Made by a program: the position numbers and the translations under genes. Of a DNA stretch of 42,654 nucleotides, positions 1,324 to 29,843 are shown one piece after another (the stretch's first letter is position 1; each line of letters begins with the position of its first letter). The notes below the pieces were generated by a model. It ran no database searches and was not told where the DNA came from. It was given only the letters and a program-made list of their open reading frames with translations. Location: sequence record KJ473423.1. One strand, given 5' to 3'. The stretch comes from Acinetobacter phage vB_AbaP_Acibel007.

Positions 1324-1335
1324 CTGTACTCACAG
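1324..1335 (+). promoter_or_regulatory. CTGTACTCACAG motif, copy 1 (candidate phage-specific promoter or processing site)
   Basis: This is an exact 11-mer CTGTACTCACA plus R. The word recurs at 4248, 14525, 22016 and 28798, with near copies at 9877 and 24178. This copy sits in the early leader upstream of the first gene. Confidence 0.4.
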
Positions 1336-1448
1336 TTAATTCCAATACATAACACGTAAAGCTATGATAAGGTTAATGAGTTTATATTTAGCTAGGTTGG
1401 GTTGAATGCTATGCACATCGACCTAGCACTAATATAATCTTGAAGACT

Positions 1449-1550
1449 GACACAAGGTATTAGCAACAAGGCATGGGATGATGACAGCACTCGTAAGGTG
1501 TTTCCTAGCTAACGGATAATCTGATACCGCATGAGGTGATACCTTGTGTC
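1449..1550 (+). other. 12-bp perfect inverted repeat (GACACAAGGTAT / ATACCTTGTGTC) enclosing a 78-nt loop in the early leader
   Basis: Bases 1449-1460 are the exact reverse complement of 1539-1550. The structure ends 33 nt upstream of the first start codon at 1584. It is a candidate RNase III-type processing or regulatory structure, like R0.3 of T7. Confidence 0.4.
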
Positions 1551-1583
1551 AATGTTCAACCAACCAACTAACATAGGTGTATT

Positions 1584-2102
1584 ATGAAACTGTTATTAAC
1601 TACAACTGAAATCAACAAAGCAATCGAATCTATCGAACGTCGTGGTAAACAATTGGATACTGATATCCATGTGGCAGGTGTGTCAGTGTTAAAGCATGTC
1701 GCTGAACATGGCGATACAACTTTGCTTGATAAGCTTGTAGGTGCTATGCCTAAAGGTAGCCGTAAGTCTGCGTTCTGTGAGTGGGCTTTGGCTTATGGTA
1801 ATGTCCGTATGCTTGACCGTGCTAACGACGCTGATAAACCTGCTATCGAACAAGGTCGCTTGTTTGCTAAGGATAAGTCTAAAGAGTTCAATGAGGTTGA
1901 AGCTATTGCTAACAAGTGGTATGACTTCAAGCCTGAAGCTGATTTGTTGATTACCTTTGATGCTGCTGCTATGGTTGCATCCATGATGAAGCGTTTATCT
2001 AAAGCACAAAAGCAAGGTGCTGAAGTAACTGGGCATGGTGATGCACTTAAACAATTACGTGCTTTGATGCAACAACTTGAAACTCAAACTGAAGAACTTT
2101 AA
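1584..2102 (+). CDS. Hypothetical early protein (172 aa), first gene after the early promoters
   Basis: ATG start with a taGGTG SD. It holds the position of the first early (class I) gene of T7-like phages. No motif is recognised. Confidence 0.6.
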   Translation: MKLLLTTTEINKAIESIERRGKQLDTDIHVAGVSVLKHVAEHGDTTLLDKLVGAMPKGSRKSAFCEWALAYGNVRMLDRANDADKPAIEQGRLFAKDKSKEFNEVEAIANKWYDFKPEADLLITFDAAAMVASMMKRLSKAQKQGAEVTGHGDALKQLRALMQQLETQTEEL

Positions 2103-2118
2103 TCTGTAGGTGTATGCC

Positions 2119-2328
2119 ATGATTACTATAACTGAGAATTACCGTGTTAAGCATGATGTGAATGGTGTTATTGAATATGCACAGTGTCGTGTTACTGGTC
2201 GCTTTGTTAAGCATGTCGTGGCATACACTGAATTGAAGTGTTCTTCTGTACTCACAACTGCTATTGCACTTGCTATCTGTGTCAGTGCATGGGTAGTGTC
2301 ATTGTTATATATCTTTCTAAATAAATAG
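2119..2328 (+). CDS. Small early protein with C-terminal hydrophobic segment (69 aa from ATG 2119; GTG 2110 possible)
   Basis: The ORF-track start at 2110 is GTG. An in-frame ATG at 2119 has AGGTG 7 nt upstream. The C-terminus LTTAIALAICVSAWVVSLLYIF is a predicted TM helix. Confidence 0.5.
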   Translation: MITITENYRVKHDVNGVIEYAQCRVTGRFVKHVVAYTELKCSSVLTTAIALAICVSAWVVSLLYIFLNK

Positions 2329-4104: not shown

Positions 4105-4247
4105 AACCATATCAACCAATATTAGGTAGCCTAATACGTTGCCCTAACTGTAAGAAAGTTTATACCTCTTGTCGTTGTCTTTGGTAGTATGTTTATAGCT
4201 ACATTCTAAGGGATGTAGCCGTTAAGCATGTTGCTTAGGTCGTGAGT

Positions 4248-4259
4248 CTGTACTCACAA
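4248..4259 (+). promoter_or_regulatory. CTGTACTCACAA motif, copy 2, intergenic, 45 nt upstream of the kinase start codon
   Basis: Exact CTGTACTCACA core. It is preceded by gtcgtgagt, which resembles copy 1's ctgtgagg. Confidence 0.45.
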
Positions 4260-4292
4260 TTATATTTCGCATTTAATAAATGTAGGTGACTT

Positions 4293-5048
4293 ATGAAAGT
4301 GTTACATCCATCTTTGAATACATATACAACTCTTAAAGTTGATAGCCCTTTGTCTCGTAAATCTACGAAGTTTCTAGTATCACCTGAATTTGGCAGTACT
4401 GAATTACTTCCGCTAGTAGCTGAGGTTCTTAAAGGTTTCACACCCTATACTAATGGTTTGGGTTACTACTGGGAAGAAGATGAAGTAGCTATGGAATACC
4501 TTGGTTCAGGTTGTTTCTCAAGTGTCTTCAAACATCCTAATCGTACTGATCGAGCTATCAAATTATTCCGTAACTACCGTGAAGATAGTACCTGTTATCA
4601 GTACCTACGTTTGTGTGCAAACAAGACTATTGATTACGAATGGTGTCCTACTGTGCATAGTTTAGGGCGTATCAAGGTGATCAGTTATAACTCGAAGCAA
4701 GGTCATTGGGAAACCCGTGATTGTGCTTACGCTGAATTGGACTTACTACCTTACAACTGTAATGATAGTGCTGTTTATATGGACGATTGGTATGCTGAGT
4801 TCCGTGATGACGTTAAGGATGTATACTTCCCGTTTGGCGATATGGATTTGAAACCCGATAATGTTCTAGGTAAGGTCAACGATGAGGGTATATGTCAATA
4901 CTTTATCACTGACCCAATATGGAACTCTGAGCCTGAGCACTACGAACCCATCCCTGAACCATTAAAGGAACTGTATGTGTATCCTAAAACGAATGGTACT
5001 TTCATAAACAACCTACGGGAGAGCATTAAACATGGTCGTGTATGGTAA
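4293..5048 (+). CDS. Ser/Thr protein kinase (Hanks-type), early gene
   Basis: Glycine loop LGSGCFSSV (aa 70-78). Lys in RAIKL (aa ~90). Catalytic loop DMDLKPDNVL (HRDLKPxN-like) about 115 aa later. The position matches the early protein kinase (gp0.7) of T7-like phages. Confidence 0.7.
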   Translation: MKVLHPSLNTYTTLKVDSPLSRKSTKFLVSPEFGSTELLPLVAEVLKGFTPYTNGLGYYWEEDEVAMEYLGSGCFSSVFKHPNRTDRAIKLFRNYREDSTCYQYLRLCANKTIDYEWCPTVHSLGRIKVISYNSKQGHWETRDCAYAELDLLPYNCNDSAVYMDDWYAEFRDDVKDVYFPFGDMDLKPDNVLGKVNDEGICQYFITDPIWNSEPEHYEPIPEPLKELYVYPKTNGTFINNLRESIKHGRVW

Positions 5049-6276: not shown

Positions 6277-6729
6277 ATGCAACATCTAAACGCTTTTATT
6301 AAGACACACTCACCTCAACAAGTCCGTGCTGTAGTTGATGAAGCTCAACGCTTAGGGTATACACCATACTATAAACCTAACTACAAATATGTAGAGGCTG
6401 TACTGTTCCATAGTGATGGTGGTTTATCCCTAAAGGTGTATCACACTGAAGAACACTCTGAATGGTTAGTTAGTCGTGGTTATCGCCACATCAAACAGAC
6501 TCGTCAAATCCGTCGTGATCTATGTGGTGGGACTTACTCACAGGATGGTCAGGCTGTACTCGACGTTGTAAATAAGGGTTATGTACCTAAGACCATTAAC
6601 GTACAGCCGTACAAATGGATTAAACCTACAGCTTATAATCCAATTATTAATTGGTTCGCTGAGAAGTTTATCAGTGCTTATGCTGTAGTGCGTAAGGTAG
6701 CTGTTGCATTCATTAACCACATCAAATAA
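6277..6729 (+). CDS. Hypothetical protein (150 aa)
   Basis: ATG 6277 with an AAGGGG SD. The longer track ORF would overlap the upstream gene. Confidence 0.55.
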   Translation: MQHLNAFIKTHSPQQVRAVVDEAQRLGYTPYYKPNYKYVEAVLFHSDGGLSLKVYHTEEHSEWLVSRGYRHIKQTRQIRRDLCGGTYSQDGQAVLDVVNKGYVPKTINVQPYKWIKPTAYNPIINWFAEKFISAYAVVRKVAVAFINHIK

Positions 6730-8166: not shown

Positions 8167-9504
8167 ATGTCAGACTTAAACCTACTCCGATGTATGATGG
8201 AGCGTAAGTCTTATCAATCGGCATTTGCATCCATCCCACAAGAAATGTATGACTTAACTACTCGTGCATTCCTTGCTTGGTTCAAACTGTATTACAAGCA
8301 TTATGAAGATCATGAGCGTGTTGATGTAGACACCTTGAGTAGCTTCATTCGTTTGAAAGGTAATCAATCTCAGGAACAGCTAAAGCTGACTGACCGATTA
8401 CTCAAGCAGTTACGTGAGCCATTGGATGATGCAGTCCGTGCCACAACATTAAACGCTTTGGAAGAACGTCGTCTATCAGGTGAGGCTGAGATGTTAGTCA
8501 AGCGCTATAATGATGGTGAGGAAATTGACATCATCCATGAGATGCGTAAGCTCGTACAAGCCTCGGAAGTTGCATTAGATGTACAACATGCATCATGGTG
8601 TGATACCGACGTAGGTGAGCTTATTGACGCTGATGCTGATGACTCAGGATATGTATTGGACTTCTTACCTGAAGAACTATATACCTGTATCAAAGGTATC
8701 AATGAGGGTAATAACGTAGGCGTAGCAGCACCTACAGATAAAGGTAAGACTTCGTTCTTAGTTAACCTTGCTGTATCGTTTGCTATTCAACGTCGTAACT
8801 TCATGAAGCAATGGACGATTGATCTTGAAGACCCTGAGAAGTGGTCACAGCGATTGCAAGAGAAGAATCGCTTTAGACCTGTATTATACCTTGTGAATGA
8901 GGGTACGGCTGAAGTAATCACACCGCGTGTATATCAGACAGCATTGAAAGTAACCCGTAAGGAAATGTATGAACGTCGTAAGGCAGGTACAATTACTTCA
9001 GACTTCATTGATGCTGTAGGTCGTCGTGATGCTATTCGATTGAAGAACATCCACGGTAAGTCTGTAGCGCAGGTAGCTAAGATCATTGAGGCACATGATC
9101 CGTTCTTAGTCATTACTGATATGACTGGACGTATCCGTGCTAATGGTGGCGGTGGTGGAGCTAACGATATTACACAGCTTGAAGAAGTTTGGAATGATAT
9201 GCGTATGCTTGCTGCAATGATGGACTTCATTCATGTAGGTACAGCACAGATCAGTGCCGAGGGTTTTGATAACCTGTACCCACCAGTGTCAGCATTACAG
9301 AACAGTAAGACAGGTATTCAAACCACATTGGATTTAGCATTGTGGATCGGTGCTTATGCTAACCCTGTACCTGATAATGAATTGATGCGTGGATTAGGTA
9401 CACCTAAAAACAAATTAGCAAAGAGTGGTTGTAAAGGTGGTAACCAAGTTATGACATTCTTCGAACCTGAAACAAATAATTGGGATGCGGTGACTAACTC
9501 ATGA
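8167..9504 (+). CDS. Replicative DNA helicase (DnaB/gp4 C-terminal-like)
   Basis: Walker A AAPTDKGKTSF plus a RecA-like fold. It lies immediately after the primase, as in phiKMV-like phages with split primase and helicase. ATG 8167 has an AGGGG SD. The longer upstream extension overlaps a spurious ORF. Confidence 0.8.
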   Translation: MSDLNLLRCMMERKSYQSAFASIPQEMYDLTTRAFLAWFKLYYKHYEDHERVDVDTLSSFIRLKGNQSQEQLKLTDRLLKQLREPLDDAVRATTLNALEERRLSGEAEMLVKRYNDGEEIDIIHEMRKLVQASEVALDVQHASWCDTDVGELIDADADDSGYVLDFLPEELYTCIKGINEGNNVGVAAPTDKGKTSFLVNLAVSFAIQRRNFMKQWTIDLEDPEKWSQRLQEKNRFRPVLYLVNEGTAEVITPRVYQTALKVTRKEMYERRKAGTITSDFIDAVGRRDAIRLKNIHGKSVAQVAKIIEAHDPFLVITDMTGRIRANGGGGGANDITQLEEVWNDMRMLAAMMDFIHVGTAQISAEGFDNLYPPVSALQNSKTGIQTTLDLALWIGAYANPVPDNELMRGLGTPKNKLAKSGCKGGNQVMTFFEPETNNWDAVTNS

Positions 9505-10274
9505 AAACAGGTGATGATGTAAAATGTATTAATAACTTTGGTATTTGGACGCTACGTGAGGGGCATGTATATCGTGTCCTTGATGTACGTAATACAGTAA
9601 TCCAAGTCCAAGGTAAACACGGTTGCACTAACTGGTACAAGAAAGATCGTTTCGTTAAAATTAAAGAGGGTAATCACATGGGTACATTAACTAAATCTGA
9701 AGTTAAAGTAGGCGATAAAGTAGTACGTATCAGTGGTACTGGGTTACGAGTAGGTGCGGAGTTCACAGTCATTGGTGTGCGTCCTGATGGTGCTGCTGTA
9801 CGTTTACAGGGTCAAGGTAGTGGTTGGTTCTGCATGAGTACATTCTCTATTGTAGAGCGTGTGAAGCCTCAACCGAACGTACTCACAGATGATCAAGTGT
9901 TTAAGTATTTAGCTGACGGTGTTGAACTTGAATACTTCTTCGATGATGTTTGGCACAAGATCGATAACCCGAAAGGTGTTAGTATCCAATTCATTCAAAC
10001 TACACAGTTCCGTAAGAAGCGTGAGTTAATGGAAGTGAATGGTATTGAAGTACCTAAAGGTAGTATGCGTGCAGTTCTCTTTGATGAGAAAGGTATCGGT
10101 TACGGGGTATCTTTTAATAAACGTGAAGTGTACAAAGCACCTCTTAAACAATTGGGACTCTGTGGTACTATGTATTGGACTGACCCTCAAGAAGCTCAAG
10201 AGGTATTGGAAGCATTACTCAAACCATTTGGTATGTATGCTAAACCTTTGAAATCAAACCTATTGGGGTCTTAA
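9501..10274 (+). CDS. Hypothetical protein with internal duplicated small beta-barrel-like repeat (257 aa)
   Basis: ATGA overlap with the helicase. Two ~35-aa segments share a G-D-x-V...V..V..QG pattern (aa 3-39 and 69-105). Confidence 0.55.
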   Translation: MKTGDDVKCINNFGIWTLREGHVYRVLDVRNTVIQVQGKHGCTNWYKKDRFVKIKEGNHMGTLTKSEVKVGDKVVRISGTGLRVGAEFTVIGVRPDGAAVRLQGQGSGWFCMSTFSIVERVKPQPNVLTDDQVFKYLADGVELEYFFDDVWHKIDNPKGVSIQFIQTTQFRKKRELMEVNGIEVPKGSMRAVLFDEKGIGYGVSFNKREVYKAPLKQLGLCGTMYWTDPQEAQEVLEALLKPFGMYAKPLKSNLLGS

Positions 10275-10275
10275 T

Positions 10276-11271
10276 ATGGACTTAGCATTTGTCGCTGATT
10301 ACTTGGCTAATCGCAAGAACCCTGTACAACTTGTCAAACATTTTGATGAAGTTAATGAAAAGAACATCAAATACCCACTGATCGGACAGCTTAAATATGA
10401 CGGCATTTATTGTTTACTTGTGTGCATTGGCTCTGAACTTCAGTTGTTTAGTCGTGTGGGCAAACCTCTCTACATGGAGAACCTCAACGGTTTTATGGAT
10501 GGTCAGCTTTGCAATCTTGCTGATGGTGTGTATATCGGGGAACTATGTACTAATGAGTTATCTTTAGAGGTGCTTAGTGGTTATGTATCACCTAACCGTA
10601 AGAAGCCGTGGGATGACGTAGGGACGCATAAGATCGGTGAACTAGGTTACATAGCATTCCATGATTACTTAACGGTAGATGAGCTGTTAGACGGTCACAG
10701 CGATACATCCTATCGTAACCGTTACTCAAACTTAGAAAACCGTTTGCAGAATGCAGCTATCGTTGGGTACACGGTGAAGTCTACACTGATCTATGATCGT
10801 GAACAGGCTGATGCTTACGCTGAAGACTTAATTAAACGTGGGCATGAGGGTGCTGTCTTTAAAGACCCTAATGCAGATTGGGAAGCAGGTCATAAAGGTT
10901 ATCGTGCAATGAAGATTGTACGTGGTATCCCTCCTCTTGATCTTCTATGTGTAGGTGTTGTCTATGGTAAGGGTAAACGAGCAGGTCAAATTGCTGCTCT
11001 ACGCTTCACCATGCACGGTAATGAGTTCAATGCTGATCTTGGTAAGGGTTGGACAGATGAACGTCGTGATCTACTAACACTCGCTTACCAAGAGGATCGT
11101 GGTGAGGGTTGGGATTGCAAGGTGTATAGCGGTACGCTTAACGAAGAAATGCGTAACCCTGTAGGTAAGATTTGGGAACTCAAAGCATTGCAGTATAGCT
11201 CAACTGGTAAGGCATTACGTCTACCAAAGGTTGTACGAGTACGTGAAGATAAGGAGACTCCTGATGCTTAA
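10276..11271 (+). CDS. ATP-dependent DNA ligase
   Basis: Adenylation motif QLKYDGIY (KxDG) and an EGAVFK motif. The size and position match the T7 gp1.3 family. Confidence 0.85.
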   Translation: MDLAFVADYLANRKNPVQLVKHFDEVNEKNIKYPLIGQLKYDGIYCLLVCIGSELQLFSRVGKPLYMENLNGFMDGQLCNLADGVYIGELCTNELSLEVLSGYVSPNRKKPWDDVGTHKIGELGYIAFHDYLTVDELLDGHSDTSYRNRYSNLENRLQNAAIVGYTVKSTLIYDREQADAYAEDLIKRGHEGAVFKDPNADWEAGHKGYRAMKIVRGIPPLDLLCVGVVYGKGKRAGQIAALRFTMHGNEFNADLGKGWTDERRDLLTLAYQEDRGEGWDCKVYSGTLNEEMRNPVGKIWELKALQYSSTGKALRLPKVVRVREDKETPDA

Positions 11272-11544: not shown

Positions 11545-11569
11545 ATTAGAAGATAGACGTATAAGATAG
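11545..11569 (+). promoter_or_regulatory. Conserved 25-bp element ATTAGAAGATAGACGTATAAGATAG, copy A (candidate phage RNAP promoter), 25 nt upstream of the DNA polymerase ATG
   Basis: Identical at 25/25 to 22503-22527. It contains two AGATAG words 13 bp apart, and a TATAAG that resembles the -4..+1 TATAG of T7/SP6/K11-class promoters, with an AT-rich ATTAG at the 5' end. Confidence 0.5.
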
Positions 11570-13900: not shown

Positions 13901-14523
13901 TGCATATTGCATCCACTATGCCACAGGGTATATTCTGCCCGTTACCTGCTGTCAGTAACTTAGAGTTCTGTAACTTCACTTACATGTGTGTTCGTGACCC
14001 TCTTGCATTTGAGGGTGCATTACGAGTACCTGAGAACTTACAGGATATAGTTATCCCACTGTTATCTTTGATACTGGATAAGGTAGACACGGATGATTAC
14101 ATTTATGTCACAGTTAGTCGTAAACACCTACAACCTAACACATGCGGTAATCGAGCAGGTTGGCATGTGGATGGTTTCCTAAGTGATGATCAATCATTTA
14201 TTTGGTTCGATAAGTTACCTACTCAAATTGCATTGGGTGGCTTTGAGGTTAGCCCTGATCATGAACAATCATTAGAGCAGTTTGATGCCCAAGTAGATTA
14301 CGGGAATATACAGTACACTGAACCTGCTATGTTGTACGAATTAAAAGATTGTGTACATCGACCAGTCTTCAACCACACTAATGACGTTCAGTTGCGTACC
14401 TTTGTTAAGATCGTAATTAGTAAAGAACGTTTCAATGGTATAGGTAATGCTTGGAATTACCTACTACCACACATCAAACCTACTAAACAGCGTGGTGAGT
14501 CTCGTAACCACACTGTAGTTTAA
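13900..14523 (+). CDS. Hypothetical protein (207 aa)
   Basis: TAATG overlap with the polymerase and an AAGAGG SD. Confidence 0.6.
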   Translation: MHIASTMPQGIFCPLPAVSNLEFCNFTYMCVRDPLAFEGALRVPENLQDIVIPLLSLILDKVDTDDYIYVTVSRKHLQPNTCGNRAGWHVDGFLSDDQSFIWFDKLPTQIALGGFEVSPDHEQSLEQFDAQVDYGNIQYTEPAMLYELKDCVHRPVFNHTNDVQLRTFVKIVISKERFNGIGNAWNYLLPHIKPTKQRGESRNHTVV

Positions 14524-14524
14524 C

Positions 14525-14536
14525 CTGTACTCACAA
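14525..14536 (+). promoter_or_regulatory. CTGTACTCACAA motif, copy 3, intergenic, 34 nt upstream of ATG 14570
   Basis: Exact core. It is followed by CTCAAT, as in copy 4. Confidence 0.45.
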
Positions 14537-14569
14537 CTCAATTCTTAAATTTATATCGGAGATTATTTC

Positions 14570-16864: not shown

Positions 16865-17417
16865 TATTCCTGAAGCTGTACAGCACGTTATTGATCAACT
16901 TAAATTGGTTGGTATTGAAGCTACGTTGGTAGGTGGTGCGTTACGTGCTGCTGCTCTTGGTGGTACATCCAATGATTATGATTTAGTTATATTTGGTGAA
17001 CGTGAGGACTTCTTCCACACTGATAAGGAGATCGAGTATTTAGGTTTCCGTAACCAACACCATGACGAATACTGTAACAACGAGGGTTATGTAGCAGATT
17101 GGCGTAAAGATGATGTGAATATCATCATGTATGATTCTTGCAAAGTAGCTGACTGGTATGCCTTGATTGAAGTGTTTGATTTAAACATCAACCAATGGTA
17201 TATCAACGAAGCAGGTGAGCTTGAGAATGATTACTATGACCCTGAAACTAAGCTCGTAAGTATTAACCCATTCCGTGATGGTCTAGGTCATGCTGAACGT
17301 CTCACCCAACGTATTGAACGCTTCCGTACTATGCTTCCCGATCTTGATTGGTCTGAGATTGAGAAGCGTCGTAAGGTTAACGATTACCTTGGTACGGAGA
17401 TCGTAAGTTATGTCTAA
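16854..17417 (+). CDS. Putative nucleotidyltransferase (Pol-beta-like NTase fold)
   Basis: The N-terminus GGALRAAALGGTSNDYDLVIF matches the GGxVRD…DxD head-domain signature of CCA-adding/polyA-polymerase-type nucleotidyltransferases. 187 aa. Confidence 0.5.
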   Translation: MKYNIPEAVQHVIDQLKLVGIEATLVGGALRAAALGGTSNDYDLVIFGEREDFFHTDKEIEYLGFRNQHHDEYCNNEGYVADWRKDDVNIIMYDSCKVADWYALIEVFDLNINQWYINEAGELENDYYDPETKLVSINPFRDGLGHAERLTQRIERFRTMLPDLDWSEIEKRRKVNDYLGTEIVSYV

Positions 17418-17859
17418 ACCTTTACAACGTATCCCACGTAGTCAGTTATTAGCTGTCACTATGTCCATCCTAGCCAAGCAAGGCGGGAAGTGTCCTATCT
17501 GCTGTCGTATGATTAACACTAAGGTTGCAGGTCGATCTTCAGACTACGTAGCCGATCATGATCATAAGACAGGTGAGATTCGTGGTGTACTTCATCGTTC
17601 CTGTAATGCTGCTGAGGGTAAGGTAGCCAATGCAGCAGGGGCGTGGGGTGCTAAGTCTATGGCGTATGAGGATATTGTCCCATTCGTTGAGGGTTTAGTT
17701 ACATACTGGAAGAACGCTGAGAAGTATGGTACTGGTATGATGTACCCTGAGCACAAAACTGATGAGCAAAAGAAAGCTGCTGCGTCATTGAAACGTCGTA
17801 AAGCTTACGCTGCAAACAAAGCTAAACAAAAGGTAAAAGATAATGCAAGTAAACGATAA
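17410..17859 (+). CDS. Endonuclease VII-type Holliday junction resolvase (HNH-like)
   Basis: CPICC…DHDHKTGEIRGVLHRSCNAAEGK matches the T4 endonuclease VII / recombination-endonuclease signature. Confidence 0.8.
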   Translation: MSKPLQRIPRSQLLAVTMSILAKQGGKCPICCRMINTKVAGRSSDYVADHDHKTGEIRGVLHRSCNAAEGKVANAAGAWGAKSMAYEDIVPFVEGLVTYWKNAEKYGTGMMYPEHKTDEQKKAAASLKRRKAYAANKAKQKVKDNASKR

Positions 17860-18034
17860 GATTACATGTGCCTATGCAGGGCAGTATCAAGGCACATATC
17901 TTACAACATTTAAAACTTATACAGCCCTCAGTACCATGCACGATCATGGACGGGACTATGTAAATCTAGTTGATGATTCAGGTGCAGAACGCACATATAC
18001 CGCTAACCGATTCGTAGTACAGGAGAACTCTTAA
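17843..18034 (+). CDS. Hypothetical small protein (63 aa)
   Basis: Translationally coupled on both sides. Confidence 0.45.
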   Translation: MQVNDKITCAYAGQYQGTYLTTFKTYTALSTMHDHGRDYVNLVDDSGAERTYTANRFVVQENS

Positions 18035-18969
18035 TGTCACAAGCCCACTTCAATAAACTGAAACCGTGGAAACAAACTGCACTACGTCTACACATGCAAG
18101 GTATGACTGCTGCTGAAATCTCTCGTGAATTTAATAATGAAATCTCAGATCGCACTATCCGAGATAACATTCAGAAACTTGCACCTCAATTTGAACGTAG
18201 TGTTGTACTTGCAGATCGTAAACCAACTATATTCGTGATTGGTGATACACAGTGTAAGCAAGGTATTGACCTCGATTATATGCATTGGATTGGGTCTTAT
18301 ATCGCATACAAGAAACCTGACATTATTGTGCATATCGGTGATCACTATGATATGGCTTCATTATCAAGTTATGATAAGGGTCAGTTAAAGGCTGAGGGTC
18401 GTCGTGTTGTAGAAGATATTGAGGCGGGTGATAAAGGTATCGAGATCATCGAATCTTATATTGCTAAGGTCAAAGGTTATAAACCACGTAAGGTTGCGAC
18501 GTTAGGTAATCATGAGCATCGTATTGATCGTTACGTTAATGATAATCCTGAGCTTGAGGGTTTCATGGGTACAGATCAATTAGCCTTTGCTAAACACGGT
18601 TGGGAAGTCTTTCCGTTCTTAACACCCGCCACTATCTGTGGTATCAACTTCGTACACTTTGTACAGAACGGTATGACGGGTAAACCGCTAGGTGGTACGA
18701 TCTTAACTCGACTGAAGAACGTGGGTGAGTCTTTCGTAATGGGGCATCAACAAACACTTGATCATTGTATCCGCTATCTACCCCTAAGTGGTCGAGCGCA
18801 GATTGGTGTTATCATTGGTGCATGTTATGAACACATGGAAGACTATAAAGGCGTACAAGGTAATCATCACTTCCGAGGTTGTGTTATGCTATATGAATGT
18901 AATGATGGTTTTGGTTTGGTTAAGCCTGTATCACTTCAACACATGAAAGATCAATTCTTAGGAGCTTAA
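18034..18969 (+). CDS. Calcineurin-like metallophosphoesterase with N-terminal HTH-like region
   Basis: MPP motifs: VIGDTQ (I), HIGDHYD (II), LGNHEHR (III, GNHE). The N-terminal ~60 aa are helix-turn-helix-like (MTAAEISREF…RTIRDNIQKL). Confidence 0.7.
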   Translation: MSQAHFNKLKPWKQTALRLHMQGMTAAEISREFNNEISDRTIRDNIQKLAPQFERSVVLADRKPTIFVIGDTQCKQGIDLDYMHWIGSYIAYKKPDIIVHIGDHYDMASLSSYDKGQLKAEGRRVVEDIEAGDKGIEIIESYIAKVKGYKPRKVATLGNHEHRIDRYVNDNPELEGFMGTDQLAFAKHGWEVFPFLTPATICGINFVHFVQNGMTGKPLGGTILTRLKNVGESFVMGHQQTLDHCIRYLPLSGRAQIGVIIGACYEHMEDYKGVQGNHHFRGCVMLYECNDGFGLVKPVSLQHMKDQFLGA

Positions 18970-18971
18970 TT

Positions 18972-19613
18972 ATGAAAATCGGTTTAATTGGTTTAGCAGG
19001 TGCAGGTAAGGACACAGCAGCATTATTGATTCAAAAGATTCTTACAGATAATGGTAAAGCATACAAGATTGATCGCTTTGCTAAGCCTCTTAAAGATGCA
19101 GCTCGTGAGGTCTTCGGTGCTACATTCGATGATCGTGATGTTAAGGAAGTACCTGTTAAGGTAGATCAAGATACCATGATTGAAGCCTCATTTAAAGCGT
19201 TACGTAAGTGCCGACTTACTGAAGCTGAAATGGATAAAGCATCTGAGTTGTTCTTTGAACACTTAGGATTTTGGAATTACCTATCCCCTCGTAAATACCA
19301 ACAGTTGCTCGGTACAGAGGTTGGACGAGCTGCACGTAGTACCGTATGGTCTGATCGAATTACGAAGTCTACAGCTAATCTGATCGTACCTGATGTACGG
19401 TTTGATGGGGAGGTTGTAGATTACAATATTCTAATCACCCGTCACCCTGTAGGGGTCGGTAGTGTACATGCTTCTGAGGTACTCGCTACAGAGATGCAGC
19501 TAGGTCTTAATGAATCTTATGATGCTATGTTCACGAACACTGGTACTATTGATGAGCTTGAGTCTAAGCTACGTACCCACATTGAAAACTTAATTAAGCA
19601 AGAGGTTATCTAA
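18972..19613 (+). CDS. Putative deoxynucleoside-monophosphate kinase (P-loop)
   Basis: The N-terminus MKIGLIGLAGAGKDTAALLI carries the G-x-x-GxGKDT P-loop typical of T4/T5-type dNMP kinases. Confidence 0.55.
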   Translation: MKIGLIGLAGAGKDTAALLIQKILTDNGKAYKIDRFAKPLKDAAREVFGATFDDRDVKEVPVKVDQDTMIEASFKALRKCRLTEAEMDKASELFFEHLGFWNYLSPRKYQQLLGTEVGRAARSTVWSDRITKSTANLIVPDVRFDGEVVDYNILITRHPVGVGSVHASEVLATEMQLGLNESYDAMFTNTGTIDELESKLRTHIENLIKQEVI

Positions 19614-19617: not shown

Positions 19618-22047
19618 ATGGATTTACTACAACGTCAGATTGATTTGGAAGAAGAATACTCAACAGCAAGTTTAGTTGCAGGCCAACAACAGATCATGGA
19701 TGCTTTCAAACAAGGACGAGCTTCTGACGTTGGTTCAGGGCGCTTGTTACTTGCTAAAGCATTCCAAGCTTCTATGGAAGACTTTGAATCATTCTTAGCT
19801 AAACCACTATCAGGTATTGGTGGTAAGTATAAGAAGTTATTAAAGATTGCAAAGCCTGAAGTATTAGTTATGGCGGGTATCCGCGAGGTTATCAATGGCT
19901 GTGCTAACCCTGAACCTATAGTAATGCAGAGCTTCTTACGTCAACTAGGTCGGATTATTGAATCTGAATCTATGTTGGTATGTATGGAGCAAGTATCTGA
20001 TGTTTATACAAATCGTACAGTAGAGTATCTTGATTCAGCAGGTACTAAATCCACTACACACCGCTACCGTACATTCCTTAAAGGCGCACAGAACATGGGT
20101 CTTAACTGGGAACAATGGACTGTAGAGGAACGTATAGGTACTGCCCGTTTACTATTGACTTGTCTTTATGAAAGTACGGGTTTATTCAAGTGGGTAGCTA
20201 ACCGTGGCACTACAGATTCTATGTATTACCTTGTGCCAAGCGAGACTTTAGAGAAACACTTTGGAGAAGTACAGAGTGCTGCTAAGGCTGTAGTTAAATA
20301 TCCACCTATGTTAGTACCGCCAATGGATTGGACTGGACAATACGACGGGGGTTATATGACAGAGTGGTTTCGTTTACACTCTCCTATGTGTGGTATCCGT
20401 TTCATTAAACCTGAACATAAGAAATGGATTATTCAGAACTTAAACAGCGAGCAATCGCTCCCTGTACGTACTGCAATGAACAAAGCACAGTCTGTACCTT
20501 ACCGTGTGAATCAGCGTGTATTGACGATTCTACGTACTGCTACGGCTATGCGTGTGGGTATCCTTGGATTACCTAGTTTCGTTGAAACACCTAAACCTGA
20601 GTTCCCATTACCGCAAGGTTGGGAAAAGGATGCAGCTACACAAGCCGAGCTTGAACAATTCCAATTTTGGAAAACTCAAATGGCTACTTACTACACTAAT
20701 GAGGCTAAACGTAAAGGTCGTCACATGGGTATCCTGTCACGTATCAATGAACTTGTGAAATATCAAGAGGAATCACGCTTATACTTCCCGACATTCATTG
20801 ACTGGCGTGGTCGTTTATACTTCCGTTCTAATCTTAACCCGCAATCATCTGATGCAGTTAAAGGCTGCTTAGAGTTCGCTGAGGGTAAAGTGTTAGGTAA
20901 AGATGGACTGCGTTGGTTAAAGGCGCATGTCGCTAACTGTTGTGGTTTTGATAAACACGACTTAGATACAAAGGTAGCTTGGACAGATGAGAACTGGTCG
21001 CAAATTGAAGATTTTATCAATAACCCCCTTGATGTTGATGCCCCTGAACCTGACACAGCATTTACATTATTGCAAGCTGCTATCGCCTTACAAGAAGCAC
21101 TCGCACTGCCTAATCCCGAACTTTATGTATGTCACGTACCTGTCGCTATGGATGCTACATGCTCAGGCTTACAGCACCTGTCTGCACTCACTCGTGACCC
21201 CGTAGGTAGTTATTACACAAACCTTGTAGATAACAAAGACAATAAAAAGTCTGACATTTACATGCGGGTTGCTGAAGTTGCTAAGAGCATGTTACCTAAG
21301 CTAATTGACGATGTGACAGTAGATCACTTTTGGAAAGTGAATGAGATCACACGTTCTATGGCTAAGAATCCTGTAATGACTTATGTGTACGGTGCAACGC
21401 TACTACGTTGTATTGATACCATTGGTTTAGCCCTATCTGAATCAGGTGTTGAACCTATTAAGAACGATGCAGGTAAAGTTGTATATAGTATGACTGCACT
21501 TGCTACACCTGTAGGGAAAGCTTTACGTAAAGGTGTTGAAGAAACTGTACCTGAATCTGCTAAGATGATGAAGTTCTTACAGACTGTGGTACGTAAACAT
21601 AAAGAGCATTGTATGCGTTGGGTTACCCCTGCGGGTGTTCCTGTAGTTAACTGGGCAGAGGGTTCTATCATCAAAACGCTTAACATCCGTTCTATGGGTG
21701 TCACCTCAGTAACTATGAAAGTAGGTACTAAGCAATATGATACTCGTTCAGCAGCAAACGGTATTGTACCCAACTTTGTACATAGTATGGACGGTTCACA
21801 TCTATGCTTAACTATTAACGAGTTCAATGGGCAGGTTCTACCTATCCACGACTCATTCGCTACCCATCCTAGTGACGTAGGTGCTATGCATGAAGCTTTA
21901 CGTAAGACATTTGCTGATATGTATAAAGCTTATGATATTAACGACTTCTTAACTTTCAATGAAGTCGATACAGAAGAATACGAAGCACCACCTCAAGGTA
22001 ATCTTGACTTGGACTCTGTACTCACAGCTCAATTTATGTTTTGTTAA
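19618..22047 (+). CDS. Single-subunit DNA-directed RNA polymerase (T7-like), 809 aa
   Basis: Catalytic motifs DATCSGLQHLSA (motif A) and PIHDSFATH (motif C). It lies at the end of the replication module directly upstream of the structural genes, which is phiKMV-type order. Confidence 0.95.
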   Translation: MDLLQRQIDLEEEYSTASLVAGQQQIMDAFKQGRASDVGSGRLLLAKAFQASMEDFESFLAKPLSGIGGKYKKLLKIAKPEVLVMAGIREVINGCANPEPIVMQSFLRQLGRIIESESMLVCMEQVSDVYTNRTVEYLDSAGTKSTTHRYRTFLKGAQNMGLNWEQWTVEERIGTARLLLTCLYESTGLFKWVANRGTTDSMYYLVPSETLEKHFGEVQSAAKAVVKYPPMLVPPMDWTGQYDGGYMTEWFRLHSPMCGIRFIKPEHKKWIIQNLNSEQSLPVRTAMNKAQSVPYRVNQRVLTILRTATAMRVGILGLPSFVETPKPEFPLPQGWEKDAATQAELEQFQFWKTQMATYYTNEAKRKGRHMGILSRINELVKYQEESRLYFPTFIDWRGRLYFRSNLNPQSSDAVKGCLEFAEGKVLGKDGLRWLKAHVANCCGFDKHDLDTKVAWTDENWSQIEDFINNPLDVDAPEPDTAFTLLQAAIALQEALALPNPELYVCHVPVAMDATCSGLQHLSALTRDPVGSYYTNLVDNKDNKKSDIYMRVAEVAKSMLPKLIDDVTVDHFWKVNEITRSMAKNPVMTYVYGATLLRCIDTIGLALSESGVEPIKNDAGKVVYSMTALATPVGKALRKGVEETVPESAKMMKFLQTVVRKHKEHCMRWVTPAGVPVVNWAEGSIIKTLNIRSMGVTSVTMKVGTKQYDTRSAANGIVPNFVHSMDGSHLCLTINEFNGQVLPIHDSFATHPSDVGAMHEALRKTFADMYKAYDINDFLTFNEVDTEEYEAPPQGNLDLDSVLTAQFMFC
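22016..22027 (+). promoter_or_regulatory. CTGTACTCACAG motif, copy 4, inside the last codons of the RNAP gene, 37 nt upstream of ATG 22065
   Basis: Exact core followed by CTCAAT. TTGACT sits 9 nt upstream. Confidence 0.45.
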
Positions 22048-22367: not shown

Positions 22368-22371
22368 TCAG

Positions 22372-22409
22372 AAGCCCTTGAGCCTAACCGCTTGAGGGCT
22401 TTTTTTTTT
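22372..22409 (+). terminator. Rho-independent terminator after the RNAP operon
   Basis: A 12-bp GC-rich stem (AAGCCCTTGAGC / GCTTGAGGGCTT, two G-U pairs) with a 6-nt loop, followed by a run of 10 T (22400-22409). Confidence 0.85.
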
Positions 22410-22430
22410 GTTTATCAATAACTTAACGAG

Positions 22431-22450
22431 TTACACAATGTTACACATGT
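22431..22450 (+). repeat. Tandem 10-bp direct repeat TTACACAATG / TTACACATGT between terminator and late element
   Basis: The two units differ by a 2-bp transposition (AT/TG) at unit positions 8-9 and are adjacent. Confidence 0.35.
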
Positions 22451-22502
22451 TGAATAACGTCTGTTCAATAGTGCTACGTAAGTGTATGATTTTAAATAAG
22501 TA

Positions 22503-22527
22503 ATTAGAAGATAGACGTATAAGATAG
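22503..22527 (+). promoter_or_regulatory. Conserved 25-bp element ATTAGAAGATAGACGTATAAGATAG, copy B (candidate late phage promoter), 18 nt upstream of the first late gene
   Basis: Identical to 11545-11569. It is the first element after the RNAP gene and terminator and heads the structural module. That is where a phage-RNAP late promoter is expected. Confidence 0.5.
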
Positions 22528-23061: not shown

Positions 23062-24612
23062 ATGGCTAAGTATCCTGAGATCACTTATTCACTCAAGGCA
23101 TTGTATAATCAGTATCGGGATACTTCACTACTTTCACGTATTGAAGACTATGCTTTTTGGACTATCCCTAGTGTGTTTCCAAAAGGTGATCAAGATTTTC
23201 GACAACAACAAAACCGTGCTATCGAATATGATTATCAAGCTGTAGGTGCAATGTTAGTAAACCGACTGGCTACTAAGTTGGCACGTACATTATTCCCCGC
23301 TAACCAATCGTTCTTTCGTATCGACGTTAGTGATGATTTAAAACAACTGTTTGAGCAAACGAAATTAGACAGTGTTATCGAATATGAAAACCAAGCATGT
23401 GAACAATTGTACATGAATGCATCTTATGCTCAACTTGTACAAGCAATGCGATTATTGGTTATTACTGGTGAGTGTTTACTGTATCGTTATAATAACGCAT
23501 TACGTGTATTCTCATTAAAGGATTACGTCCTTAAACGTAACAACGTTGGTGAGGTTATGGATATTGTTATCTGTGAGCATAAGTACCGTGAGGAACTTAC
23601 ACCTGATCAACGTGTCAAACTTCAGATTACAGAGTCTCAGACCCGTGTTAAACTCTATACCCGTGTTAAGCGTAAAGAGGTTTATGGTATTGTGTCTTGG
23701 CATGTAACACAGGAGATTAATGGTATCGACATTGGTACTAATACTGTGTATCGTGATAAGCTATGCCCATTCATCCCTGTCGCATGGAATCTCGTTAATG
23801 GTGATTCTTATGGTCGTGGTTATGTAGAGGATTATGCTGCTGACTTTGCTAAGTTATCAGATATGTCTCGTGAGCTTATGTCTTATGAGATGGAGTCTTT
23901 ACGTCTTCTACATATGGTTTCCCCTCAAGGGGCTGTGGATGTAGAGTCTGCTGCGAATGCCCCTAATGGTGAGTTTATTCAGGGTGACCCTAGTATGATC
24001 AAGCCTTATGAGGCAGGTTCGTACCAGAAGATTGCTGAGATTCGCAATGATCTTGAAGCTATTGAACAACGTTTAAATATCGCTTTTATGTATACAGGTA
24101 ATATGCGTGAGGGTGAACGTGTCACTGCTTATGAAATCCGTCAGAATGCTGAGGAAGCTGAGCAGGTCTTGGGAGGTGTGTACTCACAACTATCTCAAAG
24201 TATGCATTTACCATTAGCGTATTTATTACTATACGAAGTAAAACCAAACATCATGGAGGCGATTGACTCTCAGGAGATTAAACTAAATATCTTAACTGGT
24301 ATTCAGGCATTATCTCGTTCATCTGAGAACCAAGGTCTAGTAATTGCTTGTTCTGAGTTGAACGCTATTATCCCTACAATTGCACAGCTTGGTAAACGTT
24401 TTAATATTGATGCTATTGCAGATAAAGTCTTTGCATCTAATAACGTGAACATCAAAGATATTACATACACTGAGGAACAGCTACAGGCTAATGCTCGTGC
24501 TGAACAAGAAGCTATGGCTCAACAGCAGGCACAGATGACTCAAGGTATGCCACAACAACTTGCAGGGCAAGAGTCTGCTATCCAAGCAGTTCAACAAGCC
24601 CAACAATTTTAA
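23062..24612 (+). CDS. Head-tail connector (portal) protein
   Basis: 516 aa. First large late gene with an AAGGAGG SD. The C-terminus is Gln-rich. Size and position match T7 gp8. Confidence 0.8.
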   Translation: MAKYPEITYSLKALYNQYRDTSLLSRIEDYAFWTIPSVFPKGDQDFRQQQNRAIEYDYQAVGAMLVNRLATKLARTLFPANQSFFRIDVSDDLKQLFEQTKLDSVIEYENQACEQLYMNASYAQLVQAMRLLVITGECLLYRYNNALRVFSLKDYVLKRNNVGEVMDIVICEHKYREELTPDQRVKLQITESQTRVKLYTRVKRKEVYGIVSWHVTQEINGIDIGTNTVYRDKLCPFIPVAWNLVNGDSYGRGYVEDYAADFAKLSDMSRELMSYEMESLRLLHMVSPQGAVDVESAANAPNGEFIQGDPSMIKPYEAGSYQKIAEIRNDLEAIEQRLNIAFMYTGNMREGERVTAYEIRQNAEEAEQVLGGVYSQLSQSMHLPLAYLLLYEVKPNIMEAIDSQEIKLNILTGIQALSRSSENQGLVIACSELNAIIPTIAQLGKRFNIDAIADKVFASNNVNIKDITYTEEQLQANARAEQEAMAQQQAQMTQGMPQQLAGQESAIQAVQQAQQF

Positions 24613-26406: not shown

Positions 26407-26434
26407 GGAGGGCTTCGGCTCTCCATTCAATTTT
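26407..26434 (+). terminator. T-phi-like hairpin terminator after the capsid gene (UUCG tetraloop)
   Basis: Stem GGAGGGC-ttcg-GCTCTCC (7 bp, one G-U pair), followed by ATTCAATTTT. Its position is analogous to T-phi after T7 gene 10. Confidence 0.5.
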
Positions 26435-26675: not shown

Positions 26676-26861
26676 ATGGCGTTAATCAAAACGATTAATG
26701 CTGCTGATCTTCAAGGTACTAATGAGGTGAGTGTTGACTTCACCTCTGTACTTACCGCTATCAGTGGCGTTAAAACAGATACCACTGCTATACAGGCAGA
26801 CGTTACCGCTGTTAAGGCTGACGTAGCTGTTATCAAAACTAACACTACACCAACACCGTAA
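26676..26861 (+). CDS. Hypothetical small protein (61 aa)
   Basis: GGGAGAG SD. Thr/Val/Ala-rich. Confidence 0.45.
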   Translation: MALIKTINAADLQGTNEVSVDFTSVLTAISGVKTDTTAIQADVTAVKADVAVIKTNTTPTP

Positions 26862-26941
26862 ACTCGAAAGGGTTTACTTTAAGATATAATCCAAGCAACG
26901 TAAATCCCAAGTGGTCGTATTGTGGTGATTATATCTTAAAG
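26858..26941 (+). other. Compound hairpin region: GTAAAC-loop-GTTTAC stem plus 15-bp perfect inverted repeat (CTTTAAGATATAATC / GATTATATCTTAAAG) with 35-nt loop
   Basis: Bases 26877-26891 are the exact reverse complement of 26927-26941. A smaller stem at 26858-26877 overlaps the stop codon. The region lies in the 5' leader of the tail tubular A gene. Confidence 0.5.
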
Positions 26942-26965
26942 TGAATCAACCATAGGAGGTATAAT

Positions 26966-27523
26966 ATGGATATGTTAGAAGCTGTAAATACTGTATTACC
27001 TTATATGGGTGAACACGTAGTTACACGTATTGAGGGTGCAAAGCATCCATCTGTAGATTTAATCCAAGCTGCTATCAAGCGTCAGCAAGTAACATTGTTG
27101 ACTACTGGTTGGTGGTTTAATGAACTACATCTAAAGTTACTCCCTAACCAACAAGGTTTCATTGATGTGCCTGAAGATACGTTAGAAGCGTATGGTAAGA
27201 ATATCAGTGTTACGTTAGATGGTGAGCGTTTCTTCAATCTTGATGAGGGTTCACGATATTTCTCTAAACCGTTAGAAGTTAAGATTGTACGTAATGTACC
27301 TTTTGAGAAGTTACCTGAAACTGCTGCATTATATGTAACATATAAAGCTGCTATTGAGGTATATACTGCTGATCTTGGTGCTGAGGATGTACTTCAGATT
27401 CTAAACAATTATGCAAACGATAACTTGATTTCTTTTAAGGAACTCAATTTACGTCAACGGAAGTATAACAGTAAACGGACGGCGCGACAGTTCAGTTCGT
27501 ATAATCGGTTACGACACCGCTAG
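26966..27523 (+). CDS. Tail tubular protein A (T7 gp11-like)
   Basis: 185 aa. The GWWFN segment matches the GWTFN segment of T7 gp11. Position is after the capsid. Confidence 0.75.
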   Translation: MDMLEAVNTVLPYMGEHVVTRIEGAKHPSVDLIQAAIKRQQVTLLTTGWWFNELHLKLLPNQQGFIDVPEDTLEAYGKNISVTLDGERFFNLDEGSRYFSKPLEVKIVRNVPFEKLPETAALYVTYKAAIEVYTADLGAEDVLQILNNYANDNLISFKELNLRQRKYNSKRTARQFSSYNRLRHR

Positions 27524-27533
27524 GAGGTGAGCA

Positions 27534-29843
27534 ATGGCAGTACGTGAGGGTACGTATAAATCCTTATTACAAGGTGTATCGCAACAGACCCCACAAGAAC
27601 GTGCAGACGGACAATTAGGTTCACAGCTTAATATGCTGTCTGACCCTGTTACTGCATTACGTCGTCGTGGTGGTATTAAATTACATGCTGTATTAGAAGA
27701 CTTGGACAAGAGTAGTTATATTCGCATGACCGAGATTCTAGGTGATACTTATATTACCGTTATTGATACAGCTAAAGGTTCATTAAGTGTATACACTTTT
27801 GATGGTGGACTAAAGTCAACTATTCAAAATGATTATTTTAAAGCTCGTAGTAAATCTAGTATTCGTACTACAGTATCTAAGGATAATTTCTTCATTCTAA
27901 ATACTGAGTTAATCCCTACCAAACAGCTCGAAGCTGAGGCGGGTAAGAATCCTAAGCACTACGGGTACTTCAGCATTGTGTCTACAGCGTTTAGTAAAGT
28001 ATTTACTATATCTGTAACTCACCCCTCTATTGGTACTATAACTAAGACGGTTACTGCATCTAGCGACAATGCTGCTGAGGCAAGTCAGGAAAATATCGCT
28101 CGTGGTCTTGCGGATTTATTCTCTCAAGATACTACTTTTGCAGCGGTGTTTAATGTACACCGTACAGGTATAACTGTAGCGTTTGAGGTAAAGGATAAGA
28201 CGCAAACTGGTACTACAGTTGTGGACTCTACTACTGGTGTTACTTATGTTGTTAAGTCAGGTGCATCCCGTGTTGTGAATAAGGCTGAGTTACTGGGTAC
28301 ACTACCATCGGTACTTGATGGTTATATCATGGCTGTAGGTAACGTAGGTAACTCTGCATACTACAAATTCGATCATGGTGCATTACGTTGGGCTGAGACT
28401 GGTGTTTATGAGCCTAACTATAAACTTATCAATGAGCCTATGTATTGGTATCTTGATGCTGCTGATACTGTGAAGCTTGTACCGTTAGGTATTAAACCTC
28501 GTGAGGCAGGTGATGACGATAATAACCCTGACCCTAAATTCATTGGGTACGGTTTGACAGGTATTGGTAGCTACCAATCCCGTCTAGTATTATTGAGTGG
28601 TTCATACGTCAATATGAGTCAGACGCGTTACTTCAACCAATTCATGCGTACTACGGTTACTGAACTGTTAGATGATGATGCTATTGAGGTTTCTAGTTCT
28701 GCACTTAGCTCTGCACAGTTTGAATACTGTGTGCCTTATAATAAGGACTTGGTGTTAATTGCACAGACACAGCAAGCAGTGATCCCTGCTAACTCGACTG
28801 TACTCACACCTAAATCTGCGGTGATCTATCCGAGTACAAAAGTAGATTTGTCACTAGCTGCTGAACCCCAAGTTGTAGCTAGAAGTTTGTATTACACGTA
28901 TCAACGTGGGGCAGATTATTATCAAGTAGGTGAGTTTATTCCCAACACATATACCGACGCACAGTATTACAATCAGAATTTAACTGATCATGTACCACTG
29001 TACGCTACAGGTGTTTGTACATGTATTGCTGCATCTACTACTAACAACATGGTAGTGATGAGTTCAGACTCCCGTGATGTATTGGTTAATCAGTTCTTAT
29101 GGGTTGGTGAAGATCGCCCTCTGATGAGCTTCCATAAATGGGAGTACCCATTACCTGTTGTATACGCTCAGTTCATTCAAGAATACTTAATCGTGTTCAT
29201 GGATGATGGGCAGGGTAACTTAGTCATCGGTACTCAGAACGTACAGTTAAACCAATTAGATGATAAACCTATCCCATTCCTTGACTTGTATGGTTATGTG
29301 ACCATTGAGAACGGTGTTGGTGTTTTACCTGAGTATTTACTTGAGATGAAACCTGATGATATGGAGTTAGCTGCATCTATATATAATGACCGTTATCTGC
29401 GCCACCAAGAGATTGAGTTCTCGTATGATGATGAGGGTAATGTTACATGTCCTTATGATGGTGTTATCTATGTTGGTGTACGCTTCACAAGTGAGTTTAC
29501 TTTGACACCTCCTTTTATTAAGGATGAGAACGGTAAGGTCGTGGCAGGGGCTAAGAGTACGGTAGTACGCCTAGACATGGAATTTAAGAACACAGGTACG
29601 TTTAAAGTGTCCGTAAAGGATACTATGGGTGACTCATACTACAATGAGCTTGATACTGCTTTAACGTGGTCTGAGGCTGATTTAGGATATACATGGGTTA
29701 ATAGTATCGGTCAGGTATCTATCCCGTGTCGTACTCGTTTAACGTCTACACAGTGTTCTGTAGAGACTGTAGGTACAACAGATTTAAACCTTACTAACTG
29801 CAACTACTTATTAAGGTTGAATCAGAAGCATCGGAGGATTTAA
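27534..29843 (+). CDS. Tail tubular protein B (T7 gp12-like)
   Basis: 769 aa (T7 gp12 is 794 aa). Position is after tubular A. Confidence 0.8.
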   Translation: MAVREGTYKSLLQGVSQQTPQERADGQLGSQLNMLSDPVTALRRRGGIKLHAVLEDLDKSSYIRMTEILGDTYITVIDTAKGSLSVYTFDGGLKSTIQNDYFKARSKSSIRTTVSKDNFFILNTELIPTKQLEAEAGKNPKHYGYFSIVSTAFSKVFTISVTHPSIGTITKTVTASSDNAAEASQENIARGLADLFSQDTTFAAVFNVHRTGITVAFEVKDKTQTGTTVVDSTTGVTYVVKSGASRVVNKAELLGTLPSVLDGYIMAVGNVGNSAYYKFDHGALRWAETGVYEPNYKLINEPMYWYLDAADTVKLVPLGIKPREAGDDDNNPDPKFIGYGLTGIGSYQSRLVLLSGSYVNMSQTRYFNQFMRTTVTELLDDDAIEVSSSALSSAQFEYCVPYNKDLVLIAQTQQAVIPANSTVLTPKSAVIYPSTKVDLSLAAEPQVVARSLYYTYQRGADYYQVGEFIPNTYTDAQYYNQNLTDHVPLYATGVCTCIAASTTNNMVVMSSDSRDVLVNQFLWVGEDRPLMSFHKWEYPLPVVYAQFIQEYLIVFMDDGQGNLVIGTQNVQLNQLDDKPIPFLDLYGYVTIENGVGVLPEYLLEMKPDDMELAASIYNDRYLRHQEIEFSYDDEGNVTCPYDGVIYVGVRFTSEFTLTPPFIKDENGKVVAGAKSTVVRLDMEFKNTGTFKVSVKDTMGDSYYNELDTALTWSEADLGYTWVNSIGQVSIPCRTRLTSTQCSVETVGTTDLNLTNCNYLLRLNQKHRRI

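Follow-up and report, generated by a model that had tools for sequence, protein, structure and literature searches.

The window analysed here is the full 42,654-nucleotide stretch of Acinetobacter phage vB_AbaP_Acibel007 (KJ473423.1), and its subject is a short repeated motif, CTGTACTCACA. The family of its copies is termed class A, as distinct from class B, a 22-bp element AGAAGATAGACGTATAAGATAG of the same genome. Class A is a strand-specific DNA signal of ~14 bp, CTGTACTCACA-R-Y-T, which is real, conserved among related phages, and under selection at the DNA level. Its tentative reading is an auxiliary signal of promoter type, at which transcription of early and middle genes would be initiated, while the canonical promoters of the phage RNA polymerase (RNAP) are probably the class B copies.

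The exact motif occurs six times (1324, 2246, 4248, 14525, 22016, and 28798), always on the + strand and never on the − strand, against an expectation of 0.07 for both strands together, and none of 100 dinucleotide-preserving shuffles reached six copies. The initial annotation had listed five of these copies, all of which are real, and had overlooked the one at 2246; its two near copies, ACGTACTCACAG at 9877 and GTGTACTCACAAC at 24178, and its restriction of the motif to the + strand were borne out. Together with the six exact sites the near copies give eight occurrences of the 9-mer core GTACTCACA on the + strand. Matches to CTGTACTCACA with two mismatches number 23 versus 19.4 expected, i.e., the chance level, and therefore only the near-exact family is meaningful. 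Of the 10-mers of the genome class A is one of the most over-represented, and in the closest relative it takes first rank. The top-ranked over-represented 10-mer of the window is CCCTGCGGGT, found at 21627, 32391, and 41622, in all cases within genes. The members of the class A family, in order along the window, are the following.

1324–1337, + strand: class A, CTGTACTCACAGTT, in the early leader, 3′ of sigma-70 promoters and 260 nt 5′ of gene 1 (ATG 1584); published as P01.
2246–2259, + strand: class A, CTGTACTCACAACT, within a small open reading frame (ORF) at 2110–2328, 90 nt 5′ of ATG 2336; absent from the list of 2014.
4248–4261, + strand: class A, CTGTACTCACAATT, intergenic, 45 nt 5′ of ATG 4293; published as P02.
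9877–9890, + strand: near copy, ACGTACTCACAGAT, within ORF 9501–10274, where V-L-T is written GTA-CTC-ACA.
14525–14538, + strand: class A, CTGTACTCACAACT, 1 nt past the upstream stop codon and 45 nt 5′ of ATG 14570 (homolog of phiKMV ORF21); published as P03.
22016–22029, + strand: class A, CTGTACTCACAGCT, in the last 11 codons of the RNAP gene (S-V-L-T-A), 49 nt 5′ of ATG 22065; published as P04.
24178–24191, + strand: near copy, GTGTACTCACAACT, within the head-tail connector gene (codes G-V-Y-S-Q-L).
28798–28811, + strand: class A, CTGTACTCACACCT, within the tail tubular B gene, position 12 being C and not a purine; published as P05.

In a logo built from 22 sites of six related phages the information is held by positions 1–11 together with R12, C13, and T14, with a weak A/T run at positions 16–19 and zero conservation upstream; position 12 is a purine in 20 of the 22 sites. 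Every long ORF of the window lies on the + strand. Non-coding DNA, which makes up 7.3% of the genome, contains three of the six exact copies (binomial p ~0.007), those at 1324, 4248, and 14525, and the copy at 22016 stands at the 3′ end of the RNAP gene, which agrees with the gene context described in the initial annotation. From the start of the motif the next ATG is reached after 260 nt at 1324, 45 nt at 4248, 45 nt at 14525, and 49 nt at 22016, and the start codons located 45–49 nt past class A copies are preceded by Shine-Dalgarno-like (SD) sequences. The copies at 2246, 9877, 24178, and 28798 lie within ORFs, and all in-gene copies are found in the distal half of their ORF. The window has no terminal repeats, and therefore the class A sites are not placeable relative to the physical ends.

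Class A is already known as a prediction. In Merabishvili et al. study (2014, PLoS One, PMC4128745) Table S5B contains five “putative phage-specific promoters,” P01–P05, at 1316–1351, 4240–4275, 14517–14552, 22008–22043, and 28790–28825, which were predicted by MEME/PHIRE. By coordinates and by sequence these are the five exact copies of the initial annotation, and the host promoters and terminators of Table S5B also match the window. The sixth exact copy extends the published list, since 2246 is omitted there, as are the near copy at 9877 and class B. The papers on phages Petty and AJO2 contain nothing on the class A motif.

The copies at 1324, 2246, 4248, 14525, and 22016 are kept in phage 4AB-P and the AJO1/AJO2 contigs, and Bhz21 retains those at 1324 and 4248 (both as CTCGCA variants) and at 14525. 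The 1324 site is kept in 4AB-P, AJO2 (CTGTACTCGCA), and Bhz21 (ATGTACTCGCA), and the 4248 site in 4AB-P, AJO1 (CTATACTCACA), and Bhz21 (CTGTACTCGCA). At 4248 the homology with Bhz21 starts 3 nt 5′ of the motif, at 14525 the homology with 4AB-P, AJO1, and Bhz21 begins at the motif itself, and at 2246 the 14-mer is identical in 4AB-P with both flanks diverged. The copy at 22016 is retained only in the Daemvirus relatives (4AB-P, AJO1) and is missing from Bhz21, Petty, and L005; AJO1 also keeps the near copy at 9877. Petty has four intergenic class A copies, and in two relatives from the IMG/VR database class A copies stand immediately 5′ of genes; Petty, L051, and L052 carry the motif in similar slots, the flanks across relatives being divergent or non-homologous. 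The intergenic copies are syntenic in 4AB-P, AJO1/2, and Bhz21. By sequence comparison class A is judged to be common to a clade of Acinetobacter Beijerinckvirinae that includes Acibel007, 4AB-P, AJO1/2, Bhz21, Petty, and two IMG/VR relatives. A scan of IMG/VR with CTGTACTCACAACT gave more than 118 unrelated single matches, which is the chance level for a 14-mer.

Two records of these relatives show peculiarities at or near the motif. In AJO1 (KY245950, an “UNVERIFIED” contig) positions 2297–2567 contain a tandem duplicate of the region homologous to window 4188–4336, class A included, and faulty assembly at the motif may be the cause of the duplication. The RNAP gene of 4AB-P (15871–19061 of the record) is annotated as two pieces, mislabelled “N4-like,” with an extra ORF between them, and its specificity-loop coding region itself carries a class A copy (VTVLTV).

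The in-gene copies are selected at the DNA level as well. CTC is a rare codon (5.2% of Leu codons), and it is used in the V-L-T copies at 2246, 9877, 22016, and 28798; in total, V-L-T is written GTA-CTC-ACA in 4 of 10 cases versus 0.08 expected (p ~1e-6). The genome of 4AB-P has three in-gene GTA-CTC-ACA copies, two of them at positions that are empty in Acibel007, and Friunavirus AS11 has none. At 28798 the relatives carry TGTACTTACA/G, which is one synonymous change away, and the rare CTC completes the exact match; this copy, like that at 24178, is to be taken with caution. The near copy at 24178 is a different case: its sequence is identical in Petty, in Friunavirus AS11, and in many IMG/VR relatives without the intergenic motif, and such a distribution suggests that it is probably kept for coding reasons.

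According to the tentatively favoured interpretation, class A would start or re-start the transcription of early and middle blocks (gene 1 and the genes starting at 2336, 4293, 14570, and 22065), with the RNA start placed at, or right after, the purine of motif position 12. It would not be the canonical cognate promoter, that role being left to class B, and its reader would be the phage RNAP, in a specificity-loop-independent mode, or else the host RNAP with or without a phage factor. An expression role is suggested by the sense-strand, gene-proximal placement of the motif, by the purine at position 12, and by the skew of in-gene copies to the 3′ half of ORFs. It is also suggested by the decay of class A beside class B, as in Petty and L006, where class B occupies the ORF21 slot and is followed only by degenerate class A-like sequence.

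An analogy with phage KP34 suggests the same. In Lu et al. study (2019, PMC6834552) in vitro transcription and 5′ rapid amplification of cDNA ends (5′-RACE) demonstrated the KP34 promoters, among them one in sense orientation in the early leader and a second, weak class within the 3′ end of the RNAP gene. The position of the weak promoter is homologous to window 22016, and KP34 offers a precedent for one single-subunit RNAP with two unrelated promoter classes; however, it has no sequence similarity to class A (p = 0.50), and its weak promoter is present in a single copy.

Class A was compared by position weight matrix (PWM) with seven motifs in total, including T7, KP34, LUZ19-type, and AS11 promoters, the phiKMV nick motif, tf nicks, and class B of the same genome. 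No significant similarity was found to the T7, KP34, or LUZ19-type promoters, to the tf nicks, or to class B. The separation of the motif from a “25-bp element,” which is probably class B, was thus upheld (p = 0.72), and the resemblance to T7 GACTCACTATA that the initial annotation had pointed out was not significant (p = 0.63). The T7 class II/III promoters (TAATACGACTCACTATAGGGAGA) do share with class A many sense-strand copies, some of them in genes, and the ACTCAC hexamer, but class A has neither the −17 to −12 element nor TATA. At the base-contact positions R746, N748, R756, and Q758 of T7 RNAP, as placed on the alignment with the T7 RNAP structures, the Acibel007 RNAP has T, N, S, and T, respectively.

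Similarity to the promoters of Friunavirus AS11/AS12 is suggestive (PWM p = 0.07). These phage RNAP promoters were validated by primer extension in Popova et al. study (2017, PMC5537680) and match class A in the core TGTACTyAyA followed by a purine, in the sense-strand orientation, and in the position 5′ of genes. Two of their features are missing from class A, GAAG as a conserved upstream block and TATA ahead of the start, and class A also lacks their co-variation with the RNAP specificity loop. In Acibel007 the elements orthologous to them by position and sequence are the class B copies, which are given below together with the RNAP gene and its terminator.

517–538, − strand: class B, antisense copy with 3 mismatches, at the left end.
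11548–11569, + strand: class B, AGAAGATAGACGTATAAGATAG, 5′ of the DNA polymerase gene (ATG 11594), in the slot of the validated AS11 promoter 10394–10413.
19618–22047, + strand: gene of the T7-like single-subunit RNAP, 809 aa (E = 1e-67 to T7 RNAP structures).
22370–22403, + strand: intrinsic terminator T02, between class A 22016 and class B 22506.
22506–22527, + strand: class B, AGAAGATAGACGTATAAGATAG, after the RNAP-gene terminator and 5′ of ATG 22546, in the slot of the AS11 promoters 21135 and 21169.

The AS11 record KY268296 annotates three promoters, located ahead of the DNA polymerase module and past the RNAP terminator (PMC5537680). They read GAAGTTGyACTwATAGAAGG and align with class B of Acibel007, 4AB-P, Bhz21, Petty, and several IMG/VR relatives. 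An antisense copy of the own promoter-type element is found also in 4AB-P, Bhz21, AS11, and phiKMV (715–727). In LUZ19 the phage-specific promoters detected by ONT-cappable-seq include the antisense P001 at the left end and one after the RNAP gene, and the class B layout is the same in position. The 4-nt block 5′ of the invariant AC of class B changes together with the RNAP specificity loop in every lineage; for example, among the Friunavirus sub-lineages the loop INNIAYRY is associated with TTG[C/T]AC and the loop ISRIAYSY with TTACAC. Because class B co-varies with the loop and matches the AS11 promoters, the canonical cognate role is assigned to it, and by these comparisons the copy at 11548 is probably the canonical phage-RNAP promoter and the copy at 22506 the canonical late promoter.

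The region between T02 and class B has a feature of its own, a tandem GTTACACA-AT-GTTACACA at 22428–22452, just past the terminator and ~60 nt 5′ of class B, which is kept in 4AB-P and AJO1 and, as a variant, in Bhz21. The tandem contains AATGTTACA, with which the KP34 promoter begins. The possibility of a second, KP34-like promoter class was considered and rejected: AATGTTACACA at 22437 resembles the KP34 promoter but is a single copy, with near-matches at the chance level.

Several facts weigh against class A as a promoter. It is class B and not class A that matches the AS11 promoters in sequence and position and the LUZ19 promoters in layout, the AS11 slots and the antisense left-end slot being held by class B, and class A does not resemble this element of its own genome. 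Class A resembles T7-type promoters as a multi-copy motif upstream of genes on the transcribed strand; the ~17–23 bp architecture of that type is not present, there being no upstream element and CACA in place of TATA, and only the purine is found. No bases are conserved 5′ of the would-be −11, and the information content falls off sharply at this point, 11 nt ahead of the putative start. Among Acibel007, 4AB-P, AJO1, Bhz21, Petty, L051, and L052 the RNAP loops differ but class A stays identical, and its −11 to −8 block shows no co-variation with the specificity loop. In a cell-free screen (PMC11475235) the Acibel007 RNAP (R13) with CTGTACTCACAGCTCAATTT, a 20-mer that corresponds to site 22016, is outside the eight named active pairs, which is weak evidence, as the construct was without upstream sequence and the enzyme was perhaps non-functional. 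Finally, the analogous over-represented motif of phiKMV, also annotated as promoters, is reported as the consensus of localized nicks. The promoter reading offered in the initial annotation is the same as the prediction of 2014 and fits the placement and conservation of the motif; it finds no counterpart in loop co-variation or among the active enzyme-promoter pairs.

Host sigma-70 promoters were also considered and rejected as an identity of the motif: a scan for sigma-70 promoters finds none at any class A site, no consistent hexamer lies 17 ± 1 nt from TGTACT, and the stop codons of the preceding genes account for the −10-like strings just upstream.

The phiKMV precedent leads to another explanation, which is possible but rather doubtful, namely, that class A is a nick-associated site, where by analogy with the phiKMV-like Pseudomonas phages a phage nicking activity would leave a localized sense-strand break in the packaged DNA. 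This would be compatible with an expression role, and the two leading readings are not mutually exclusive. The nick consensus of phiKMV-like phages is 5′-CGACN5CCTA/CTCCGG-3′ (Kulakov et al. 2009, as quoted in PMC3517423 and bioRxiv 10.1101/619015), and nicks are reported for several phages of the phiKMV supergroup. Like class A, the phiKMV nick consensus stands out more than any other strand-specific repeat in its genome, initially received a promoter annotation, and starts just past stop codons ahead of genes, with one syntenic site. The phiKMV record has three “putative bacteriophage specific promoters,” each with CGACN5CCTACTCCGG on the + strand, just past a stop codon and before a gene, and the LUZ19 promoter motif is found in phiKMV at 20492, 20678, 34956, and 715 (− strand), which mirrors class B of Acibel007. 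Both the phiKMV site 13986 and window 14525 are directly 5′ of ORF21 homologs (33% identity, E = 5e-31). TACTC-N5-T(C/T)AA(A/T)T is common to both motifs, and the PWM similarity (p = 0.03) is the best of the seven comparisons, its significance being lost after correction for seven tests. Class A is furthermore sharply bounded, strand-specific, present in few copies per genome, tolerated in genes, and invariant across differing RNAP loops.

Against this explanation, the window does not contain the phiKMV consensus as such and shares with it no more than a 5-nt core; class A is without the CGAC half-site, has more copies, and stands in some cases within genes. The mapped nick of the KP34-like phage fHe-Kpn01 (7873) shows no similarity to class A, and the tf-type nick motifs have no preference for non-coding DNA, whereas class A has one. 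The skew to the 3′ half of ORFs fits expression better, as does the decay of class A where class B is adjacent. By genomic slot the comparison goes both ways: of the three phiKMV nick slots one, that 5′ of the ORF21 homolog, is matched, and the capsid-gene slot has no class A copy. Searches of the site-adjacent genes in PHROG and Pfam revealed neither a functional clue nor a candidate nickase or regulator. Equally doubtful, though worth consideration, is the wider view that class A may be no promoter, being either the Acinetobacter-phage counterpart of the phiKMV nick motif or a site of some other conserved factor, and class B would then be the true cognate promoter.

The phiKMV RefSeq record still labels the nick-consensus sites 6306–6343, 13979–14015, and 24121–24157 as putative phage promoters. 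The screen of 2024 also paired the phiKMV RNAP with a nick-consensus site, and this pair is likewise outside the named active ones (PMC11475235).

It is unlikely that class A is neither promoter nor nick and serves as the site of another conserved DNA- or RNA-acting factor, such as an early DNA-binding regulator of the phage, or an endoribonuclease or RNA-binding protein of host or phage setting mRNA 5′ ends or stability. Such a factor would agree with the invariance of the motif across phages that share the host genus and differ in RNAP loops, with its occurrence on the sense strand only, in 5′ untranslated regions (UTRs) and next to A/U-rich sequence, and with the small hairpins at 1324 and 4248. 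On the other side, no secondary structure is common to the sites and no Rfam family matches at them, the distance to the start codon ranges over 28–260 nt, and a cleavage site is hard to square with the selected mid-gene copies at 9877 and 28798.

RNase III processing sites, as between the T7 early genes, were among the proposals of the initial annotation and are very improbable. The sites are indeed spaced through the early region and the hairpin at 1324 is significant (z = −3.2), but five of the seven sites fold no better than shuffles, and only 1324 and, weakly, 4248 place the motif in a hairpin. The two stems have 9 bp (1324) and 6 bp (4248), far below RNase III substrates, and the hairpin does not belong to the conserved motif.

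The least probable explanation, chance or a coding by-product without function, is refuted for the class A family as a whole: the protein-level conservation of 24178 even in phages otherwise lacking the motif, the single synonymous change that separates 28798 from the relatives, and the overlap of 22016 with the conserved RNAP C-terminus speak for it, but six copies versus 0.07 expected, the conservation of intergenic copies across genera, and the rare-codon excess speak against it, and it is possible for 24178 alone.

Some further observations concern the sites at 1324 and 4248 and their surroundings. The segments 1312–1338 and 4236–4262 share a 27-nt similarity, TAGG-yyGTGAGk-CTGTACTCACA-rTTA, in which the upstream GTGAG pairs with ACTCAC and gives the above-mentioned hairpin; these two copies may form a regulated subclass. 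From the first class A site to gene 1 there extends a leader of 250 nt of non-coding DNA (1335–1584) with ~78% identity to Bhz21 over ~190 nt and with no Rfam match, which could be a structured 5′ UTR or a small RNA. Outside the early region, a G+C-rich hairpin with a T-rich tail is found at 26407–26424 directly after the capsid gene, in the same place as an annotated AS11 terminator, and it is absent from the Acibel007 terminator table.

The identity of class A has practical consequences, as its “promoter” label has been taken at face value: the enzyme screen of 2024 used a class A 20-mer for the Acibel007 RNAP (PMC11475235). The comparisons described here indicate AGAAGATAGACGTATAAGATAG as the sequence to test for this polymerase. 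For phiKMV-like phages they also give a rule of promoter choice, namely, to take the repeat that follows the RNAP gene, stands in antisense orientation at the left end, and changes together with the specificity loop. If class A is a promoter, it would represent a second, loop-independent promoter class for a single-subunit RNAP. If it is a nick site, site-specific genome nicking would extend to the Beijerinckvirinae, and the confusion of promoters with nick sites known from phiKMV would be a pitfall met repeatedly when promoters are predicted in phiKMV-like phages.

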